NCBI GenBank assembly: GCA_023140595.1
Contig: JAGLLI010000078.1
Location: 1 to 29,951, forward strand
Source of the DNA: Candidatus Parcubacteria bacterium
Lineage (GTDB): Bacteria > Patescibacteriota > Patescibacteriia > Patescibacteriales > UBA12075
Direction: 5' to 3'
DNA: 29,951 nt
Shown here: positions 14,344 through 29,951 of the stretch, piece by piece
Layout: every line of letters begins with the position of its first letter
Position numbering within the stretch: the first letter of the stretch is position 1
Position numbers and translations under genes: made by a program
The notes under the pieces: model-generated
Told to the model about the DNA's origin: nothing
What the model saw: only the letters and a program-made list of their open reading frames with translations
Database searches by the model: none

Positions 14344-16107
14344 ATGTCAAGCAAACAAAAAAAATGGCAAATTTTGCCTAATATTAAAGAAGAAATAATT
14401 AACGAATATCCAGAATATTTGCCTTTGGTTTTGCAATTATTGCATAACCGCGGCATAACAGAAAAAGAGGAAATAAAAAACTTTTTAGAAGGGGATTATG
14501 AAAAAAATTCGCATGATCCTTTTTTATTTCAGGATATGAAGAAAGCGGTTGAGTTGACTATTAATCATATTAAAAAAAGAAATAAAATAACCGTTTACGG
14601 CGATTATGACGCTGATGGAGTAACCTCTTCCGCGATTTTGGTTGAGCTTTTTAAGCTTTTTAAAGCAGAAGTTGATGTCTATATTCCGCATCGCGTAAAA
14701 GAGGGCTATGGCGTAAACAGGCAGGCGGTTGATTTGATTGCAAAAAATAACACAAAATTAATTATTACAGTGGATACCGGTATAAGAAGCAAAAAAGAAA
14801 TCGCGGACGCGCGAGAGCTGGGAATTGATGTTATTGTGACAGATCACCATGTTCCGCCAAAGGAATTAAATGAATATCCTGAATGTTTAATTATTAATTC
14901 CGCCATTACCGCGGACAAATATCCTGATAATTTTTTGGCCGGTGTTGGCGTGGCGTTTAAATTTGCCAAGGCGCTTATTGACAGCTCAAAACTTTCAAAA
15001 AAAGATAAACAAGATTTAAGTTATCGGTTCCTAGATTTAGTTGCAATCGGCACGGTTGCTGATTGCGTGAAATTAACCGGAGAAAATAGAATTTTGGTTA
15101 AAAAAGGCTTGGAAGTTTTAAGTAATACAAAAAGAATCGGATTAAGTTCTCTTTATGAAATAGCAAAAATAAACAATAACAATAAAATTGACACTTGGAA
15201 TATCGGTTTTCAAATCGGCCCAAGGCTAAACGCGGCCGGACGGCTTGACCATGCTAATACGGCTTATCAGTTGTTAATTACCAAAGATTCAGACGAGGCA
15301 AAAAAATTAGCGCAAGAATTAAATAATAGCAATCAAGAAAGACAACAAATTACCGAAGAAATATTTTTGGAAGTGGAAGAACAAATTAATGTTAAAGATG
15401 ATAATATTTTAATCGGAGTTTATAATTTAGAGAATAATAAATCAGAAAAAGAAACAGCATGGAATGAGGGCGTAGTCGGTTTGGTTGCGGGGAAAATAGT
15501 TAATAAATATTTTCGCCCGTCTTTGGTTATTACCAAAACAAAAAACGGATACAAAGGTTCCGGCAGAAGCATTCCATGTTTTAATTTAATTAAAGCGATT
15601 GAGCAATGCGCCGATTTTTTAGATAAATACGGCGGACATCCCCAGGCTTGCGGTTTTAGTTTTTCTGAAGAAAATTTAGATAATTTTGTAAATAAAATTA
15701 AAGACATTGCCAAAAAAGAAATTATACAGGATATGATGCGGCCGATAATTAAGATTGACGCGATTTTGAATTTTGAAGAAATAAACGAAGATTTATATGA
15801 AAAAATAAGCGCGCTCGCGCCTTACGGACAAGGCAATGAACGCCCGGTTTTTTTAAGCGAGAGTATAAAAATATTTGATATTACAACAATGGGAATGGAA
15901 GGACAGCATATCAAATTTAAGTTAAAAAATGACAAGTCCGGTTTTATAAACGCAATCAGCTTTGGAGGCTCTGAAATATGGAAAGATTTCGCGATTGGTG
16001 ATATTATTAATATTGTGTATAATTTGGATTTGAATGTTTTTAATGGTCGCAGCGAGGTTCAGTTGAAGATGGTTGATATTAAGAAAGAAAAAAGGGAATA
16101 CTCGTGA
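14344..16107 (+). CDS. recJ: Single-stranded-DNA-specific exonuclease RecJ
   Basis: The DHH motifs are VYGDYDADGVTSSAIL, TVDTG and VTDHH. The DHHA1 motif is GGHPQACGFS. The 587-aa length fits. Confidence 0.92.
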   Translation: MSSKQKKWQILPNIKEEIINEYPEYLPLVLQLLHNRGITEKEEIKNFLEGDYEKNSHDPFLFQDMKKAVELTINHIKKRNKITVYGDYDADGVTSSAILVELFKLFKAEVDVYIPHRVKEGYGVNRQAVDLIAKNNTKLIITVDTGIRSKKEIADARELGIDVIVTDHHVPPKELNEYPECLIINSAITADKYPDNFLAGVGVAFKFAKALIDSSKLSKKDKQDLSYRFLDLVAIGTVADCVKLTGENRILVKKGLEVLSNTKRIGLSSLYEIAKINNNNKIDTWNIGFQIGPRLNAAGRLDHANTAYQLLITKDSDEAKKLAQELNNSNQERQQITEEIFLEVEEQINVKDDNILIGVYNLENNKSEKETAWNEGVVGLVAGKIVNKYFRPSLVITKTKNGYKGSGRSIPCFNLIKAIEQCADFLDKYGGHPQACGFSFSEENLDNFVNKIKDIAKKEIIQDMMRPIIKIDAILNFEEINEDLYEKISALAPYGQGNERPVFLSESIKIFDITTMGMEGQHIKFKLKNDKSGFINAISFGGSEIWKDFAIGDIINIVYNLDLNVFNGRSEVQLKMVDIKKEKREYS

Positions 16108-16135
16108 GTACTCCCTTAAAAATTAATTTTATTTA
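16090..16135 (+). terminator. Putative terminator overlapping the recJ stop codon
   Basis: GGGAATACTC-GTGA-GTACTCCC is an 8-10 bp stem with one mismatch. The stop codon lies in its loop. An A/T-rich tail (TTAAAAATTAATTTTATTT) follows. The U-tract is imperfect. Confidence 0.4.
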
Positions 16136-16146
16136 GATTTTGAATG

Positions 16147-16317
16147 TTAAAAAACACTCCAAATAAATGCTCCCGTAGCCATTAATACAATTCTGCTTAC
16201 GATTTCAGGAACAAATTTTCCATCTAAGTTGTAAATAGCATCGCCTAAAAAATCAGCAACGCTAACAATGGTTGCTAAACAAATAATAATCAGCCAAGAT
16301 GTTAAACTTTTATCCAT
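16147..16317 (-). CDS. Unlisted small ORF: 56-aa two-helix hydrophobic peptide with strong SD
   Basis: The ORF is not in the supplied track. My hand translation of the minus strand is MDKSLTSWLIIICLATIVSVADFLGDAIYNLDGKFVPEIVSRIVLMATGAFIWSVF*. AAAGGAGGG lies 5 nt upstream of the ATG. The ORF sits between the recJ terminator and rnhA. Confidence 0.5.
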   Translation of the reverse strand: MDKSLTSWLIIICLATIVSVADFLGDAIYNLDGKFVPEIVSRIVLMATGAFIWSVF

Positions 16318-16374
16318 TTTAACCCTCCTTTTGCAATGTTTTTATGTATATAAAACTTAGCATAAATTAAAATA

Positions 16375-16806
16375 ATGTCAAGTAAAACGATAAAGCATCA
16401 AAAAATTAAAATTTATACTGACGGGGGAGCGCGGGGTAATCCCGGACCGGCTGGGGTTGGGGTGGTTGTTTATGACGTGAATGATAATATTATTGATACC
16501 AAATCAGAGTATATTGGCGAAGCAACCAATAATCAGGCGGAGTACAAGGCGGTTGTCGTTGCCATGGAGTTGATTGGCAAATATGAAATTGATGAAATTA
16601 ATTTTTTTCTTGACAGTGAATTGGTTGTAAAACAATTAAACCGAGAGTATAAAGTAAAAAACAAAGGCTTGGCGCCTTTGTTTGTGAAAGTGTATAATAA
16701 TATACTTAAATATAAAAAAGTTACTTTTACGCATGTGCGCCGGGAGTTTAATAAAGAGGCGGACAAATTGGCAAATATTGCCATGGATAACGGACAAATT
16801 TTATGA
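16375..16806 (+). CDS. rnhA: Ribonuclease HI
   Basis: The N-terminus IKIYTDGGARGNPGPAGVGVVV matches the RNase H catalytic motif, with the rest of the fold following. The stop overlaps the dedA start as ATGA. Confidence 0.88.
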   Translation: MSSKTIKHQKIKIYTDGGARGNPGPAGVGVVVYDVNDNIIDTKSEYIGEATNNQAEYKAVVVAMELIGKYEIDEINFFLDSELVVKQLNREYKVKNKGLAPLFVKVYNNILKYKKVTFTHVRREFNKEADKLANIAMDNGQIL

Positions 16807-25549: not shown

Positions 25550-28183
25550 TTACTTAACCCTAACCAAAACCTCATCCTTAATTCCCAAATCAATTGATAT
25601 TTTGTTTCCTTCTTTTATTTTGCCTTCAATAATTTCCAATGCCAATTCGTCAAGGATTGAATTTTGAATGATTCTTTTTAGCGGACGCGCCCCGAAAGTT
25701 ATATCATAACCTTTGTCGGCCAGCATTTTTTTAACTTTTACCGCAATTTTTATTTTAATATTTTTATCAAGCAGCCTTTTTTCAAGTTTATTTAACTCAA
25801 GATCCACTATTTCAGCCAATACTCTTTTACTAAGGCTTTTAAATATTACGATTTCGTCAATTCTGTTTAAAAATTCCAGTTTAAAATTTTCTTTAAGAAT
25901 TATATCAATTTTTTCTTTCATTTCGCTATCCCGAATTTTAACCGCTTCTTCTTTATCGCTGTCATCGGAAAATCCGATTGAATATTGTTTGATAACCTCG
26001 TTTCCAAGATTGGATGTCATAATAATAATTGAATGCTTAAAATTAACCACCCGTCCCTTGGCATCAGTCAAGCGGCCATCGTCTAAAATTTGCAAAAGAA
26101 TATTAAATACTTCAGGGTGGGCTTTTTCAATTTCATCAAATAAAATTACGCTATAAGGGCGGCGGCGTATTTTTTCAGTTAATTGCCCGCCTTCTTCATG
26201 CCCTATATAACCCGGAGGGGAGCCGATCATGCGCGCAACACTGTGTTTTTCCATAAATTCGCTCATGTCCAGCCTAATTAAAGCATTCTCGTCGTTAAAC
26301 ATAAAGTTCGCCAAGGCTTTGCCTAGTTCTGTTTTTCCAACTCCGGTCGGTCCGACAAACAAAAATGATCCGATTGGTTTTTGTTCTTCTGATATTCCGG
26401 CTCTTGAACGGCGAATCGCGTTGGCAACGGATTTAATAGCGTCGTCCTGTCCGCGAACGCGCTTAGCCAATTCAATTTCGGCTTTTGCCAATTTTTTAAT
26501 TTCAGATTCAAGCATTTTTGAAACAGGAATTCCCGTCCATCGGGCAACGACTTTTGCAATATCCTCACTGTCAATTTCTTCTTTTAATATTCTTTGCCCT
26601 TTTTTTTGAATATTTAATAATTCAGTTTCCAATTTTTTTACGTCTTTTTCCAGCGCTGGAATTTTCGCGTATCTGATTTCAGCTACCTTGGTTAAATCCT
26701 CGCCCTGCCTTTCAATAATTTCGGCCTTTGCTTTTAGGCTGTCAATTTCTTTCTTTTTTCCGCTTATTTTTGATATGATATTTTTTTCGTTATTCCAGTG
26801 CAGTTCAATTTGATCGGCCTTTTCTTTAAGTTCTTCAATATGTTTGTTTAAATGTTTGATTTTTACATTGCTTTTTTTCTCTTGTTCCAAACCGGCTTTT
26901 TCAATTTTTAATCTTTTGATTTCTCTTTTTAATTTATCCAAATCTTCCGGCATTGAATCAATTTCCATTCTTAGCGCGCTTGTGGCTTCGTCAATTAAAT
27001 CTACCGCCTTGTCAGGCAAAAAACGGTCGGTTATATATCGTGAGGAAAGTTTAACAGAGGCCATTATGGCGTCATCGGTAATTCTTACTCCATGATGGAC
27101 TTCATATTTTTCTTTAATGCCTCTTAAAATCGCGACTGTGTCTTCAACGCTTGACTCGGAAACATAAATCGGCTGAAAGCGCCTTTCCAAAGCCGCGTCT
27201 TTTTCAATGTATTTTTGATATTCTTTAATGGTTGTGGCGCCGATTGTTTTTAATTCGCCGCGCGCCAAAGCGGGCTTAAGCATATTTGAAGCGTCCATTG
27301 CGCCTTCAGACGCGCCAATTCCAACGATTGTGTGCAATTCGTCAATAAACAAAATAATTTTACCTTCCTGCGATTTAATCTCTTTTAAAACCGCTTTTAA
27401 GCGATCTTCAAATTCACCTCTAAACTTCGCTCCGGCGACCATTGCGCCCAAATCAAGACTGATTAATTCTTTGTTTTTTAAAGTTTCCGGAACATCACCG
27501 TCAACAATTCTTTGCGCCAGCCCTTCAACAATCGCGGTTTTTCCAGTTCCTGCTTCTCCGATAACAACCGGATTGTTTTTTGTGCGGCGCGATAAAATTT
27601 GCATTATTCTGCGAATTTCCTCGTCTCTGCCGATTACAGGATCCAGTTTTTTTTGTTTTGCCATTTCAGTTAAATTAATCGCGTATTTTTCCAAAACTTT
27701 GTACTTGGTTTCAGGATTGGGGCTGTCAACTTTTTGCGAACCGCGAAGTTCGGCTAAAATTTTTAAAACATTTTCATAGTCAACCCCAAGGCGCAAAAGA
27801 ATTTCTTGCGATTCTGTTTTGATTCCGATTAAAGCCAATAAAATATGTTCGGTGGAAATATATTCATCACCCATTTGATCAGCTTCTTTTTTCGCTCTTT
27901 CCAAAATCATTGCCACTTCAGCTGTGCCTTGAACGGCCCCCACGTTTTCACGCATCGGAGCAGAGGACTTGGGTCTTTGTTCAATTTTTTTAAAAATCAT
28001 ATCTTCCACTTCTATTGGTGAAATTTTTAATTTTTCCAAAACAGGCTTAATCAAACTTTCGCTTTGAGTTAAAAGCGCCGCAAAAATATGCAGGCTTTCA
28101 ATTTGAGACTGCCCGTAATCCTGCGCTATAATCTGCGCGTTAATAATCGCTTCCTGTGATTTGTTTGTAAATTTATTAAACAT
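25550..28183 (-). CDS. clpB: ATP-dependent chaperone/disaggregase ClpB
   Basis: The Clp_N repeats appear after [17 protein letters not shown]. There are two AAA+ modules, [16 protein letters not shown] and [16 protein letters not shown] long coiled-coil middle domain is diagnostic of ClpB rather than ClpA/C. The true start is probably M15 (ATG 28183) of the track ORF. Confidence 0.95.
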
Positions 28184-28212
28184 ATTTGTTAGATTTAAAA
28201 TTATTTTATAAA

Positions 28213-28239
28213 TTAGCACTCTCACTCTATGAGTGCTAA
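28213..28239 (-). promoter_or_regulatory. CIRCE operator (HrcA binding site), consensus-perfect TTAGCACTC-N9-GAGTGCTAA
   Basis: TTAGCACTC at 28213-28221, the 9-nt spacer TCACTCTAT, then GAGTGCTAA at 28231-28239. It lies between the clpB -10 and the clpB start codon. Confidence 0.85.
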
Positions 28240-28243
28240 TTTC

Positions 28244-28272
28244 ATAATAGTATTTATGGGATATGTTGTCAA
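28244..28272 (-). promoter_or_regulatory. clpB promoter TTGACA-17-TATTAT (minus strand)
   Basis: On the minus strand TTGACA (+28267-28272), the spacer acatatcccataaatac, then TATTAT (+28244-28249). CIRCE sits immediately downstream. Confidence 0.65.
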
Positions 28273-28288
28273 GTGAAAAAAATTTGAA

Positions 28289-28316
28289 TTGACTTAAATT
28301 TGTTATTTGTTATACT
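28289..28316 (+). promoter_or_regulatory. Divergent promoter for the toxin-antitoxin operon (TTGACT-16-TATACT)
   Basis: TTGACT at 28289-28294, a 16-nt spacer, then TATACT at 28311-28316. It is back-to-back with the clpB promoter. Confidence 0.5.
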
Positions 28317-28350
28317 GAAAATACGATTTATTAAAATAACAATTAATTTT

Positions 28351-28755
28351 ATGTCTAAAGAACTAAGTAAAATTTCTTCAGCAAAACTTGCTAAAGTAAA
28401 ATTAATCCCTTGGTCAAAGGCAATATCTGGATCGTCAATTAAGTTATCTAAAAATTCTCAAGCAGGAGTTATAGTTGACCAGCAAGGCGCGCCGCAAATG
28501 TTTGTTTTTGACACTTTTGCTTTTCTTGATATTTTATCTGAAATTGATAGCAGATTGGCTGACAAATTGTCGCATAAAGAATACCATTCCAAGAGCGCTA
28601 ATCCCGCCGGTTGTCTGATTGATGAAATTGAGGCTAAGCTTCCAGCCAACTCTAATTTTATCAAATCTTTAAAAAACGCCATTAAAGAATCTGATAAAAA
28701 GGGCTGGGTGCCGTTTTCTAAAATACAAGCGGAATTTGGATTATCATCGTCATAA
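28351..28755 (+). CDS. Putative antitoxin (Phd/YefM-like core with C-terminal extension)
   Basis: The start is probably ATG 28351 (MSKELSK...), since the track ORF begins inside the promoter. GVIVDQQGAPQMFVFDTFAFLDIL resembles the Phd/YefM (vITrrGkPvAVlvsledYesL) core. It lies 25 nt upstream of a RelE/ParE toxin gene. At 134 aa it is longer than typical antitoxins. Confidence 0.4.
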   Translation: MSKELSKISSAKLAKVKLIPWSKAISGSSIKLSKNSQAGVIVDQQGAPQMFVFDTFAFLDILSEIDSRLADKLSHKEYHSKSANPAGCLIDEIEAKLPANSNFIKSLKNAIKESDKKGWVPFSKIQAEFGLSSS

Positions 28756-28779
28756 TTATTTACTTGTTTTGCGTAATTT

Positions 28780-29040
28780 ATGTTCAATATCAATTTTGCC
28801 AAACAAGCGCAAAAAGATTTTAATAAATTGGCTTATGATATTCAACATTTTATCAATGACAAATTAAAATTTTACGCCAGCCAAGATAATCCCTTAAAAT
28901 CAGCCAAACCGCTTATTAATATTCCTCCAGCCACGCATCGTTTTCGTGTTAGTAAATATAGGATTTATTTTTATATTTCAAAAAATATTATTTTTGTTGA
29001 AAGAATTAAATTGCGCGGGCAGGCGTATAAAAAACATTAA
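28780..29040 (+). CDS. RelE/ParE-family type II toxin
   Basis: MFNINFAKQAQKDFNKL...HRFRVSKYRIYFYISKNIIFVERIKLRGQAYK matches the RelE/ParE fold consensus. That consensus has KkdlkKL at the N-terminus and RiRvGdYRiiYrvd..vvil.ighRkdvY at the C-terminus. Confidence 0.7.
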   Translation: MFNINFAKQAQKDFNKLAYDIQHFINDKLKFYASQDNPLKSAKPLINIPPATHRFRVSKYRIYFYISKNIIFVERIKLRGQAYKKH

Positions 29041-29157
29041 AGGAAATTAAAATATAATATTATAGTATGCTGGAAAAATGGCCGCAACTTATAAAAGTTA
29101 CAGTCATTTTTTATTATAATTCATAAAATTAATTTGTAAGTAAGATTTTACTAACTA

Positions 29158-29185
29158 TTGCAATATTAAGTAGCTTTGTTATAAT
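29158..29185 (+). promoter_or_regulatory. Putative promoter TTGCAA-16-TATAAT for the efflux adaptor gene
   Basis: TTGCAA at 29158-29163 and TATAAT at 29180-29185, about 27 nt upstream of ATG 29212. Confidence 0.4.
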
Positions 29186-29211
29186 TAAAATATGAAAATT
29201 AAACTATTATT

Positions 29212-29951
29212 ATGACTATTAAAAAAGCAATAATTATTTTAGTTATTTTGGGGTCTCTTGGCGGTCTTGTTGCTTTTGCCATGCTTGGCAATAAGCCTAA
29301 AATTACATATACTGCCGTAAGCATAGAAAAAAAAGATATTATTCAAACAGTCAGTGAAACAGGCACGATAAAATCAGCTAATGAAATTAAACTGAGTTTT
29401 TTAAATTCAGGAAAAATTGAGAAAATAAATTTTAATGTTGGTGATAAAATTTTAAAAGATCAGATTATTGCAGGGCTTGATTGTTCTGATTTATATATTA
29501 GAAAAGAAGAAGCAAAAGCGAATGTTGATGTTGTTAGGGCAAACCATAACAAATTGCTGTCTGGAGCGACAAAAGAAGATATTAACATATATAAAGCAGG
29601 CTTGCAGCAGGCAAAAACAGCTTATGAGGCGTCGGAAAAAGAATTGGAAAAAAATAAATTATCCGTTAATGAAAATATCGCGCAAACAGCAAAAAATTTA
29701 GCGGATTTAAAATCATCAGCGCCAAGCACCGTAACTGCGGCTGAACAAGCGATTATCAACGCTGAAATCGCGCTTAAAAATACCAAATCAACATATCAAT
29801 CAGCAATTGATAATTATACTGAAAACGGCTTAATTGCTGTTGAAAGCAAACTGTCAATTGCCAACAACGCTCTTGACGAGATTGATCGGACAATTAATGA
29901 TGAAGATTTAAAAAATTATTTAAGCGTAAGAAACATAAGTTATTTACATAG
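29212..29951 (+). CDS. HlyD/MacA-family periplasmic adaptor (membrane fusion protein), 3' end outside the window
   Basis: The ORF is not in the track because it has no stop in the window. Frame 1 stays open from ATG 29212 to the window end. The hand translation is MTIKKAIIILVILGSLGGLVAFAMLGNKPKITYTAVSIEKKDIIQTVSETGTIKSANEIKLSFLNSGKIEKINFNVGDKILKDQIIAGLD... It shows a TM anchor, a beta-strand lipoyl-like motif and a coiled-coil hairpin. The track ORF 29468..29701 is in another frame. Confidence 0.75.
   Translation, partial: MTIKKAIIILVILGSLGGLVAFAMLGNKPKITYTAVSIEKKDIIQTVSETGTIKSANEIKLSFLNSGKIEKINFNVGDKILKDQIIAGLDCSDLYIRKEEAKANVDVVRANHNKLLSGATKEDINIYKAGLQQAKTAYEASEKELEKNKLSVNENIAQTAKNLADLKSSAPSTVTAAEQAIINAEIALKNTKSTYQSAIDNYTENGLIAVESKLSIANNALDEIDRTINDEDLKNYLSVRNISYLH

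Follow-up and report, generated by a model that had tools for sequence, protein, structure and literature searches.

[quoted passage not shown] HrcA is reportedly inactivated in B. subtilis through titration of GroEL, and the HrcA of C. jejuni is said to be intrinsically thermolabile. To our knowledge, the clpB-type genes of B. subtilis stand outside the HrcA regulon, the Clp genes being controlled by CtsR. The operator that we describe here, found in a 29,951-nt stretch of DNA from Candidatus Parcubacteria bacterium (hereafter, the window), has the identical consensus, TTAGCACTC-N9-GAGTGCTAA, and the arrangement of CIRCE, promoter, and hrcA in the clade of this bacterium is alike. Unlike in B. 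subtilis, however, clpB is a regular member of the set of genes carrying CIRCE in the window's clade; groES accounts for a single match in a metagenome scan for CIRCE.

The presence of CIRCE on clpB is in itself already known from the Mollicutes, genome-reduced bacteria in which the element lies on both the clpB promoter and the dnaK operon and in which copies with as many as 2 mismatches still function (PMC5138195; PMC7737663). HrcA/CIRCE control of clpB, lon, and the dnaK operon is known there from Mycoplasma gallisepticum, Spiroplasma melliferum, and, for lon, M. pneumoniae. The window's clade shares with the Mollicutes the same palindrome on clpB and a dnaK operon that also carries CIRCE, yet it belongs to a different phylum (Patescibacteria/CPR), carries a single CIRCE on clpB versus two in S. 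melliferum, and is distinguished by an HrcA of about 228 aa and by a very uniform spacing, with the -10 box ending 4 to 5 nt before CIRCE. Short HrcA proteins have been described in Epsilonproteobacteria, where HrcA works with HspR (PMC7464140). The model for these proteins in Helicobacter and Campylobacter (NF003033, 264 positions) is, like the CPR proteins, shorter than the canonical model of 338 positions. Nevertheless, the CPR HrcA proteins match NF003033 over their N-terminal 95 to 110 residues at 66 to 83 bits, against a cutoff of 248, and are thus not members of this subfamily. Our literature search found no paper joining HrcA with Patescibacteria or the candidate phyla radiation, and the arrangement across CPR bacteria appears to be unreported.

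Comparative sequence evidence indicates that a palindrome upstream of clpB is very probably a functional HrcA operator acting on a sigma-70-type promoter in Candidatus Parcubacteria bacterium. The palindrome, at 28213..28239 of the window, matches the CIRCE consensus TTAGCACTCTCACTCTATGAGTGCTAA at 18 of 18 positions, its two 9-nt arms, TTAGCACTC and GAGTGCTAA, being separated by the 9-nt spacer TCACTCTAT. The inverted repeat extends beyond the consensus and is perfect out to 12-nt arms (28210-28221 and 28231-28242, 100% complementary), so that the full palindrome occupies 28210..28242. It is the sole match in the window, even with up to 3 mismatches allowed, and 100 dinucleotide-preserving shuffles of the window yielded no match at all, not even one reaching 15 of the 18 positions. 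The preliminary description of this DNA had recognized an exact CIRCE consensus between the clpB -10 box and the start codon, and all of its coordinates agree with ours. It had also named the random occurrence of CIRCE-like palindromes as an observation that would count against its reading; in the shuffled sequences, such occurrence was nil.

The gene that follows the operator (25550..28183, minus strand, with its ATG at 28183) encodes an 877-aa protein beginning with MFNKF, which can be assigned to ClpB with confidence. Its best model is TIGR03346, at 1198.9 bits, slightly below the cutoff of 1232.1 and above the ClpV, ClpA, ClpK, and ClpG models, and all Pfam domains expected of the disaggregase are present (Clp_N, AAA, AAA_lid_9, AAA_2, and ClpB_D2-small). 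The protein is 57% to 81% identical to 80 Patescibacteria ClpB proteins, which begin at the same residues. Its closest counterparts in species-representative genomes all derive from Patescibacteria/CPR metagenome-assembled genomes (MAGs), including those of Parcubacteria, Falkowbacteria, Uhrbacteria, Magasanikbacteria, and Doudnabacteria. We note that many of the Patescibacteria MAGs in the genome collection are filed under incorrect organism names, such as "uncultured Gammaproteobacteria bacterium," "Candidatus Pacearchaeota archaeon," "Bacillota bacterium," and "Candidatus Udaeobacter sp."; the ClpB proteins from these mislabeled MAGs are 60% to 81% identical to the Parcubacteria query.

Read along the minus strand, the clpB control region consists of the -35 box TTGACA (28272..28267), 17 nt, the -10 box TATTAT (28249..28244), 4 nt, CIRCE (28239..28213), 29 nt, and the start codon. 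With a score of 11/12, this promoter is the top-scoring one in the interval 25000-29951. The -35 box is conserved at the same register in a CIRCE-anchored alignment of 61 loci, and the distance of 4 nt between the -10 box and CIRCE corresponds to the modal geometry among the relatives. Because the operator begins 4 nt past the -10 box, it covers the expected transcription start, which is the classical site for steric repression.

To assess the conservation of the operator, 80 related clpB loci amounting to approximately 1.35 Mb were scanned for CIRCE with up to 3 mismatches. Four of them, in which the 5′ end was truncated or the upstream sequence too short, were left out, and 60 of the 76 informative species-level Patescibacteria loci carry CIRCE upstream of clpB, with no mismatch in 17 cases, 1 in 31, 2 in 11, and 3 in a single case. 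The elements lie within about 210 nt 5′ of the clpB start and usually end 12 to 46 nt before the start codon; elsewhere in the 1.35 Mb, there is just one further CIRCE, which precedes hrcA at locus L074. Across the 60 loci, the arms hold 1.77 bits of information per column and the spacer 0.31, and in the nearest relatives (ClpB 76% to 81% identical), the site is kept although the spacer has diverged completely. Conserved arms combined with a free spacer represent the pattern that a protein-binding site predicts, unlike a chance or purely structural element. A TTGACA-16/18-TATAAT promoter stands directly upstream of CIRCE in 50 of the 60 loci, and for these 50 loci with a recognizable promoter, the gap between the -10 box and CIRCE is 4 nt in 32 and 5 nt in 7.

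The association between CIRCE and clpB is not universal, given that 16 informative loci have no CIRCE on clpB. A search of these 16 loci for diverged operators, allowing spacers of 7 to 11 nt and up to 5 mismatches, found none. In about 9 of them (8 loci, L074 included, and probably L079), htrA, encoding a trypsin-PDZ protease, is located just upstream of clpB, which suggests that these loci have an htrA-clpB operon under some other control. Variation was also observed within the operator itself. At 9 loci of a Magasanikbacteria-like subclade, both half-sites are changed in mirror fashion, yielding the symmetric variant TTATCACTC-N9-GAGTGATAA, and at other loci, the half-site variant GACTGCTAA/TTAGCAGTC occurs in one arm, or, in one case (L029), in both. 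Such symmetric drift of the half-sites suggests co-evolution of repressor and operator.

The cognate repressor would be encoded elsewhere in the genome. Neither the window nor the 2 kb past its end, a region covered by a near-identical contig, contains hrcA, and a regular-expression search for HrcA motifs across the 80 clpB loci returned nothing. A tblastn search of the same loci with a B. subtilis HrcA sequence identified hrcA at L074 only, where clpB closes a heat-shock cluster in the order CIRCE-like site, hrcA, grpE, hsp20, dnaK, dnaJ, htrA, and clpB. The HrcA encoded there (L074:3112-3789) has 225 aa and contains PF01628 and a winged helix-turn-helix domain. Its homologues form 2125 protein clusters, and those of a Falkowbacteria HrcA at least 7948, nearly all of them with lengths of 224 to 252 aa; the L074 protein and 3 further examples fall in the range of about 225 to 240 aa. 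On TIGR00331, the short proteins score 172 to 180 bits against a cutoff of 197.2, a shortfall that arises because approximately 110 central residues of the canonical HrcA (about 340 aa) are missing and that explains why thousands of clusters lack the HrcA name, the annotations often reading "hypothetical" or "DeoR family." The N-terminal winged helix aligns to residues 17-92 of Thermotoga maritima HrcA (1STZ) with an E-value of 1e-17, and the absent segment presumably corresponds to the inserted dimerizing domain of 1STZ.

The hrcA genes of the clade are themselves preceded by CIRCE. In each of 5 distinct operons inspected, representing six genomic contexts, a perfect CIRCE lies before hrcA, and the gene order is hrcA-(nudix)-grpE-hsp20-dnaK(-dnaJ), with hrcA at the head. 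Here, the promoter and operator are combined in a second way: the -35 box TTGACA is embedded in the 9-nt spacer of CIRCE, and the -10 box follows the right arm (L084-L105, e.g., L086:1020-1046). The same design, TTAGCACTC-TTGACANNN-GAGTGCTAA, is also found at dnaK (L114-L193) and at a few clpB genes (4 loci). A scan of metagenomes for this string recovered 71 loci with a readable downstream open reading frame (ORF), which was hrcA in 33, dnaK in 22, clpB in 3, groES, hsp20, and dnaJ in 1 each, and another gene in 10; the motif is thus all but confined to heat-shock genes. In several Falkowbacteria-like operons (L084-L093 and L098-L103), a NUDIX hydrolase domain is fused to GrpE or comes before it, the product measuring 286 to 313 aa (PF00293 and PF01025).

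In the mechanism that we propose, an HrcA dimer bound to the operator over the clpB start would block RNA polymerase at normal temperature. Heat or unfolded protein would inactivate HrcA, and clpB would then be derepressed together with the hrcA-grpE-hsp20-dnaK-dnaJ operon. The preliminary description had likewise proposed that HrcA represses clpB, and the conservation of the operator at 60 of 76 loci, together with clade hrcA genes bearing a CIRCE of their own, argues for such putative control. From these patterns, we infer the binding of HrcA, repression, and heat induction, and also that the source genome has an hrcA gene; HrcA is the likely repressor on the strength of genomic evidence from the clade, with the short form assumed to be active. 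By contrast, the idea that CIRCE on clpB is unusual and may reflect a reduced heat-shock regulon is overstated, considering that the dnaK operon of the clade keeps CIRCE and that clpB has CIRCE in the Mollicutes. The data point to an HrcA regulon of which clpB is one member, not to one reduced to clpB.

More broadly, and with less assurance than for the operator itself, we consider it reasonably likely that these observations reflect an undescribed, clade-wide minimal regulon of Patescibacteria/CPR, comprising hrcA-grpE-hsp20-dnaK-dnaJ and clpB, placed under a truncated HrcA (about 228 aa) and employing two stereotyped promoter-operator designs. The pair would be one of the few that can be confidently assigned as transcription factor and operator in uncultured CPR/Patescibacteria, in which regulation is almost unknown, and the analysis flags as HrcA thousands of short proteins that now go under other labels. 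Our results suggest that, as in the Mollicutes, heat-shock control by a repressor has been retained in the reduced CPR genomes and extends to the ClpB disaggregase. The understanding of the HrcA/CIRCE mechanism as such is unchanged; rather, a known design is extended to CPR bacteria.

Several other explanations of the palindrome were weighed against control by HrcA. It might be a relic or a chance palindrome that matches CIRCE and is unused, for instance, following the loss of hrcA in the lineage, in keeping with the failure to see hrcA in the window or its immediate flank and with the 16 relatives that manage without CIRCE on clpB. We regard this as highly unlikely, because a perfect 18/18 match with 12-nt arms would decay fast without selection, the shuffles did not reproduce even a 15/18 match, the nearest relatives keep the site in spite of the complete divergence of its spacer, and HrcA is widespread in the clade. 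Equally improbable, in our judgment, is that the inverted repeat is less a DNA operator than an RNA hairpin within the 5′ leader of clpB that influences mRNA stability, translation, or attenuation. A 12-bp stem could form if the repeat were fully transcribed, and CIRCE of B. subtilis is known to lower mRNA stability as well. However, with the -10 box ending 4 nt upstream of CIRCE, transcription is predicted to start inside the first arm, so that the full hairpin would be absent from the transcript. In addition, the sequence of the arms is conserved across 60 loci, whereas in an RNA stem, the paired positions should covary freely; at hrcA promoters with the -35 box in the spacer, the element lies upstream of the transcript; and there is no T-run at the site and no Rfam match, a scan of the whole window with Rfam having found no structured RNAs. 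The window contains no tRNAs either. Finally, the CIRCE motif of CPR bacteria might by now be bound by a regulator other than HrcA, as could be suspected from the HrcA of the clade, which falls about 110 aa short of the canonical length and scores below the curated HrcA cutoff. Yet its winged-helix domain aligns strongly with that of T. maritima HrcA, the motif is unchanged from canonical CIRCE, and, as in classical hrcA operons, the gene for the short HrcA directly follows a perfect CIRCE and precedes grpE-dnaK, all of which makes such a replacement extremely unlikely.

A further possibility arises from the divergent neighborhood of clpB, where a toxin-antitoxin (TA)-like cassette is transcribed from a promoter of its own. 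This plus-strand promoter, TTGACT (28289..28294)-16-TATACT (28311..28316), scores 10/12, is TG-extended, and begins 49 nt from the end of CIRCE and 40 nt from the clpB -10 box, in agreement with the preliminary description, which had reported it at 40 nt. A single HrcA-bound operator could conceivably govern both divergent promoters and thereby couple the TA cassette to heat shock, given that just 16 nt separate the two -35 boxes and that the -35 box of the cassette is 49 nt from the operator. We consider this quite improbable. The clpB promoter stands between CIRCE and the TA promoter, which CIRCE does not overlap, and the cassette is absent from the clpB loci of all 80 relatives examined. 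Moreover, a homologous unit encoding proteins of 132 aa and 86 aa is found in another Patescibacterium next to RNase H and recJ, where neither clpB nor CIRCE is close by, and has a nearly identical promoter (L107 and L113), the homology starting near position 28275 of the window, right beside the clpB -35 box, as an insertion predicts. Given that cassette and promoter recur elsewhere, the cassette arrived with a promoter of its own and inserted just 5′ of the clpB promoter. The claim that chaperone and TA control are physically interlocked is therefore to be replaced by mere juxtaposition of a strain-specific cassette, and HrcA control of the clpB promoter remains the preferred reading of the operator.

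The cassette itself resembles type II TA systems of the ParDE/RelBE kind, being made up of two genes with a small ParE_toxin-like gene in the downstream position, having its own promoter, and showing a patchy, strain-specific distribution in TA-rich islands. Unlike in those systems, the first gene product, a protein of 134 aa from an uncharacterized family (28351..28755, plus strand), has no known antitoxin family or fold and is presumed to be the antitoxin by position only. It is identical to NCBI protein KAJ61_03020. None of its 31 homologues has a Pfam domain, its AF2 model (pLDDT 79.5) gave no fold match, and comparisons with known antitoxin families and folds, Phd/YefM included, found no match. 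The second product, an 86-aa toxin-like protein of the ParE/RelE superfamily (28780..29040, plus strand), matches PF05016 (ParE_toxin) over profile positions 1-89 of 89 at 23.2 bits, just at the threshold of 23, and has no sequence match in NCBIfam or PDB. Thus, in the pair previously described as Phd/YefM-like plus RelE/ParE, the toxin is marginally ParE-like, and the Phd/YefM assignment has no signal behind it. The pairing is nonetheless conserved, the homologues of the 134-aa protein in other genomes being followed by the 86-aa gene. The island around the cassette copy in the other Patescibacterium (L106-L113, e.g., L107:2712-8399) also contains a second ParE pair, a DUF433/DUF5615 pair, and a HicA/UPF0150 pair. 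The window, too, carries RNase H and recJ, at 14344-16806.

The 3′ side of clpB has been altered in a comparable manner. The clpB stop codon (25552..25550) is followed, after 1 nt, by the ATG (25548) of an ORF of 110 aa (25216..25548, minus strand), which belongs to a small conserved family and is absent from all 80 relatives. The preliminary description had called this ORF translationally fused to clpB across a 1-nt gap; the gap is indeed there, and the genes are adjacent rather than fused. The 40 members of this family in the protein library share the core GGI.F.I...A.S.N....IiT.G....eLd.NIKDAIfTaF.vP, and neither the ORF product nor 38 homologues have a meaningful Pfam match. Searched against PDB, the family profile hit the HicB-type chains 6hpb_B, 6u0i_A, and 1wv8_A at nonsignificant E-values of 1 to 1.5. 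The single-sequence AF2 model (pLDDT 49.8) was too poor for its ferredoxin-like Foldseek matches to be meaningful, and no hicA-like gene adjoins the ORF; that the protein is HicB-like is a reasonable guess.

Further downstream, at 22223-24841 on the minus strand, lies a gene for an 872-aa protein with a match to MVP_shoulder (PF11978, 74 bits) as its sole annotation, also absent from 80 of 80 relatives. The relatives have the orthologue of the gene at 20522..22072, which encodes a 516-aa protein, directly after clpB, so that the 110-aa ORF and the 872-aa gene constitute a strain-specific insertion of approximately 3.4 kb. Accordingly, both the TA-like cassette and the small ORF are insertions particular to the strain and have no regulatory connection with the operator. 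The 516-aa protein (minus strand) has no Pfam or NCBIfam match; it is the conserved downstream neighbor of clpB in most relatives, where its orthologues display 31% to 59% identity, are usually located within 100 to 200 nt of clpB or less, and might be co-transcribed with it. As a last observation, the promoter of the TA-like cassette contains repeats of its own: a perfect 9-nt inverted repeat, TTGTTATTT/AAATAACAA (28300-28308 and 28334-28342), brackets the -10 box and the leader, and a tandem TTTGTTA-TTTGTTA (28297-28310) lies between the -35 and -10 boxes. These repeats could be sites of autoregulation, or they could have arisen by chance in AT-rich DNA.
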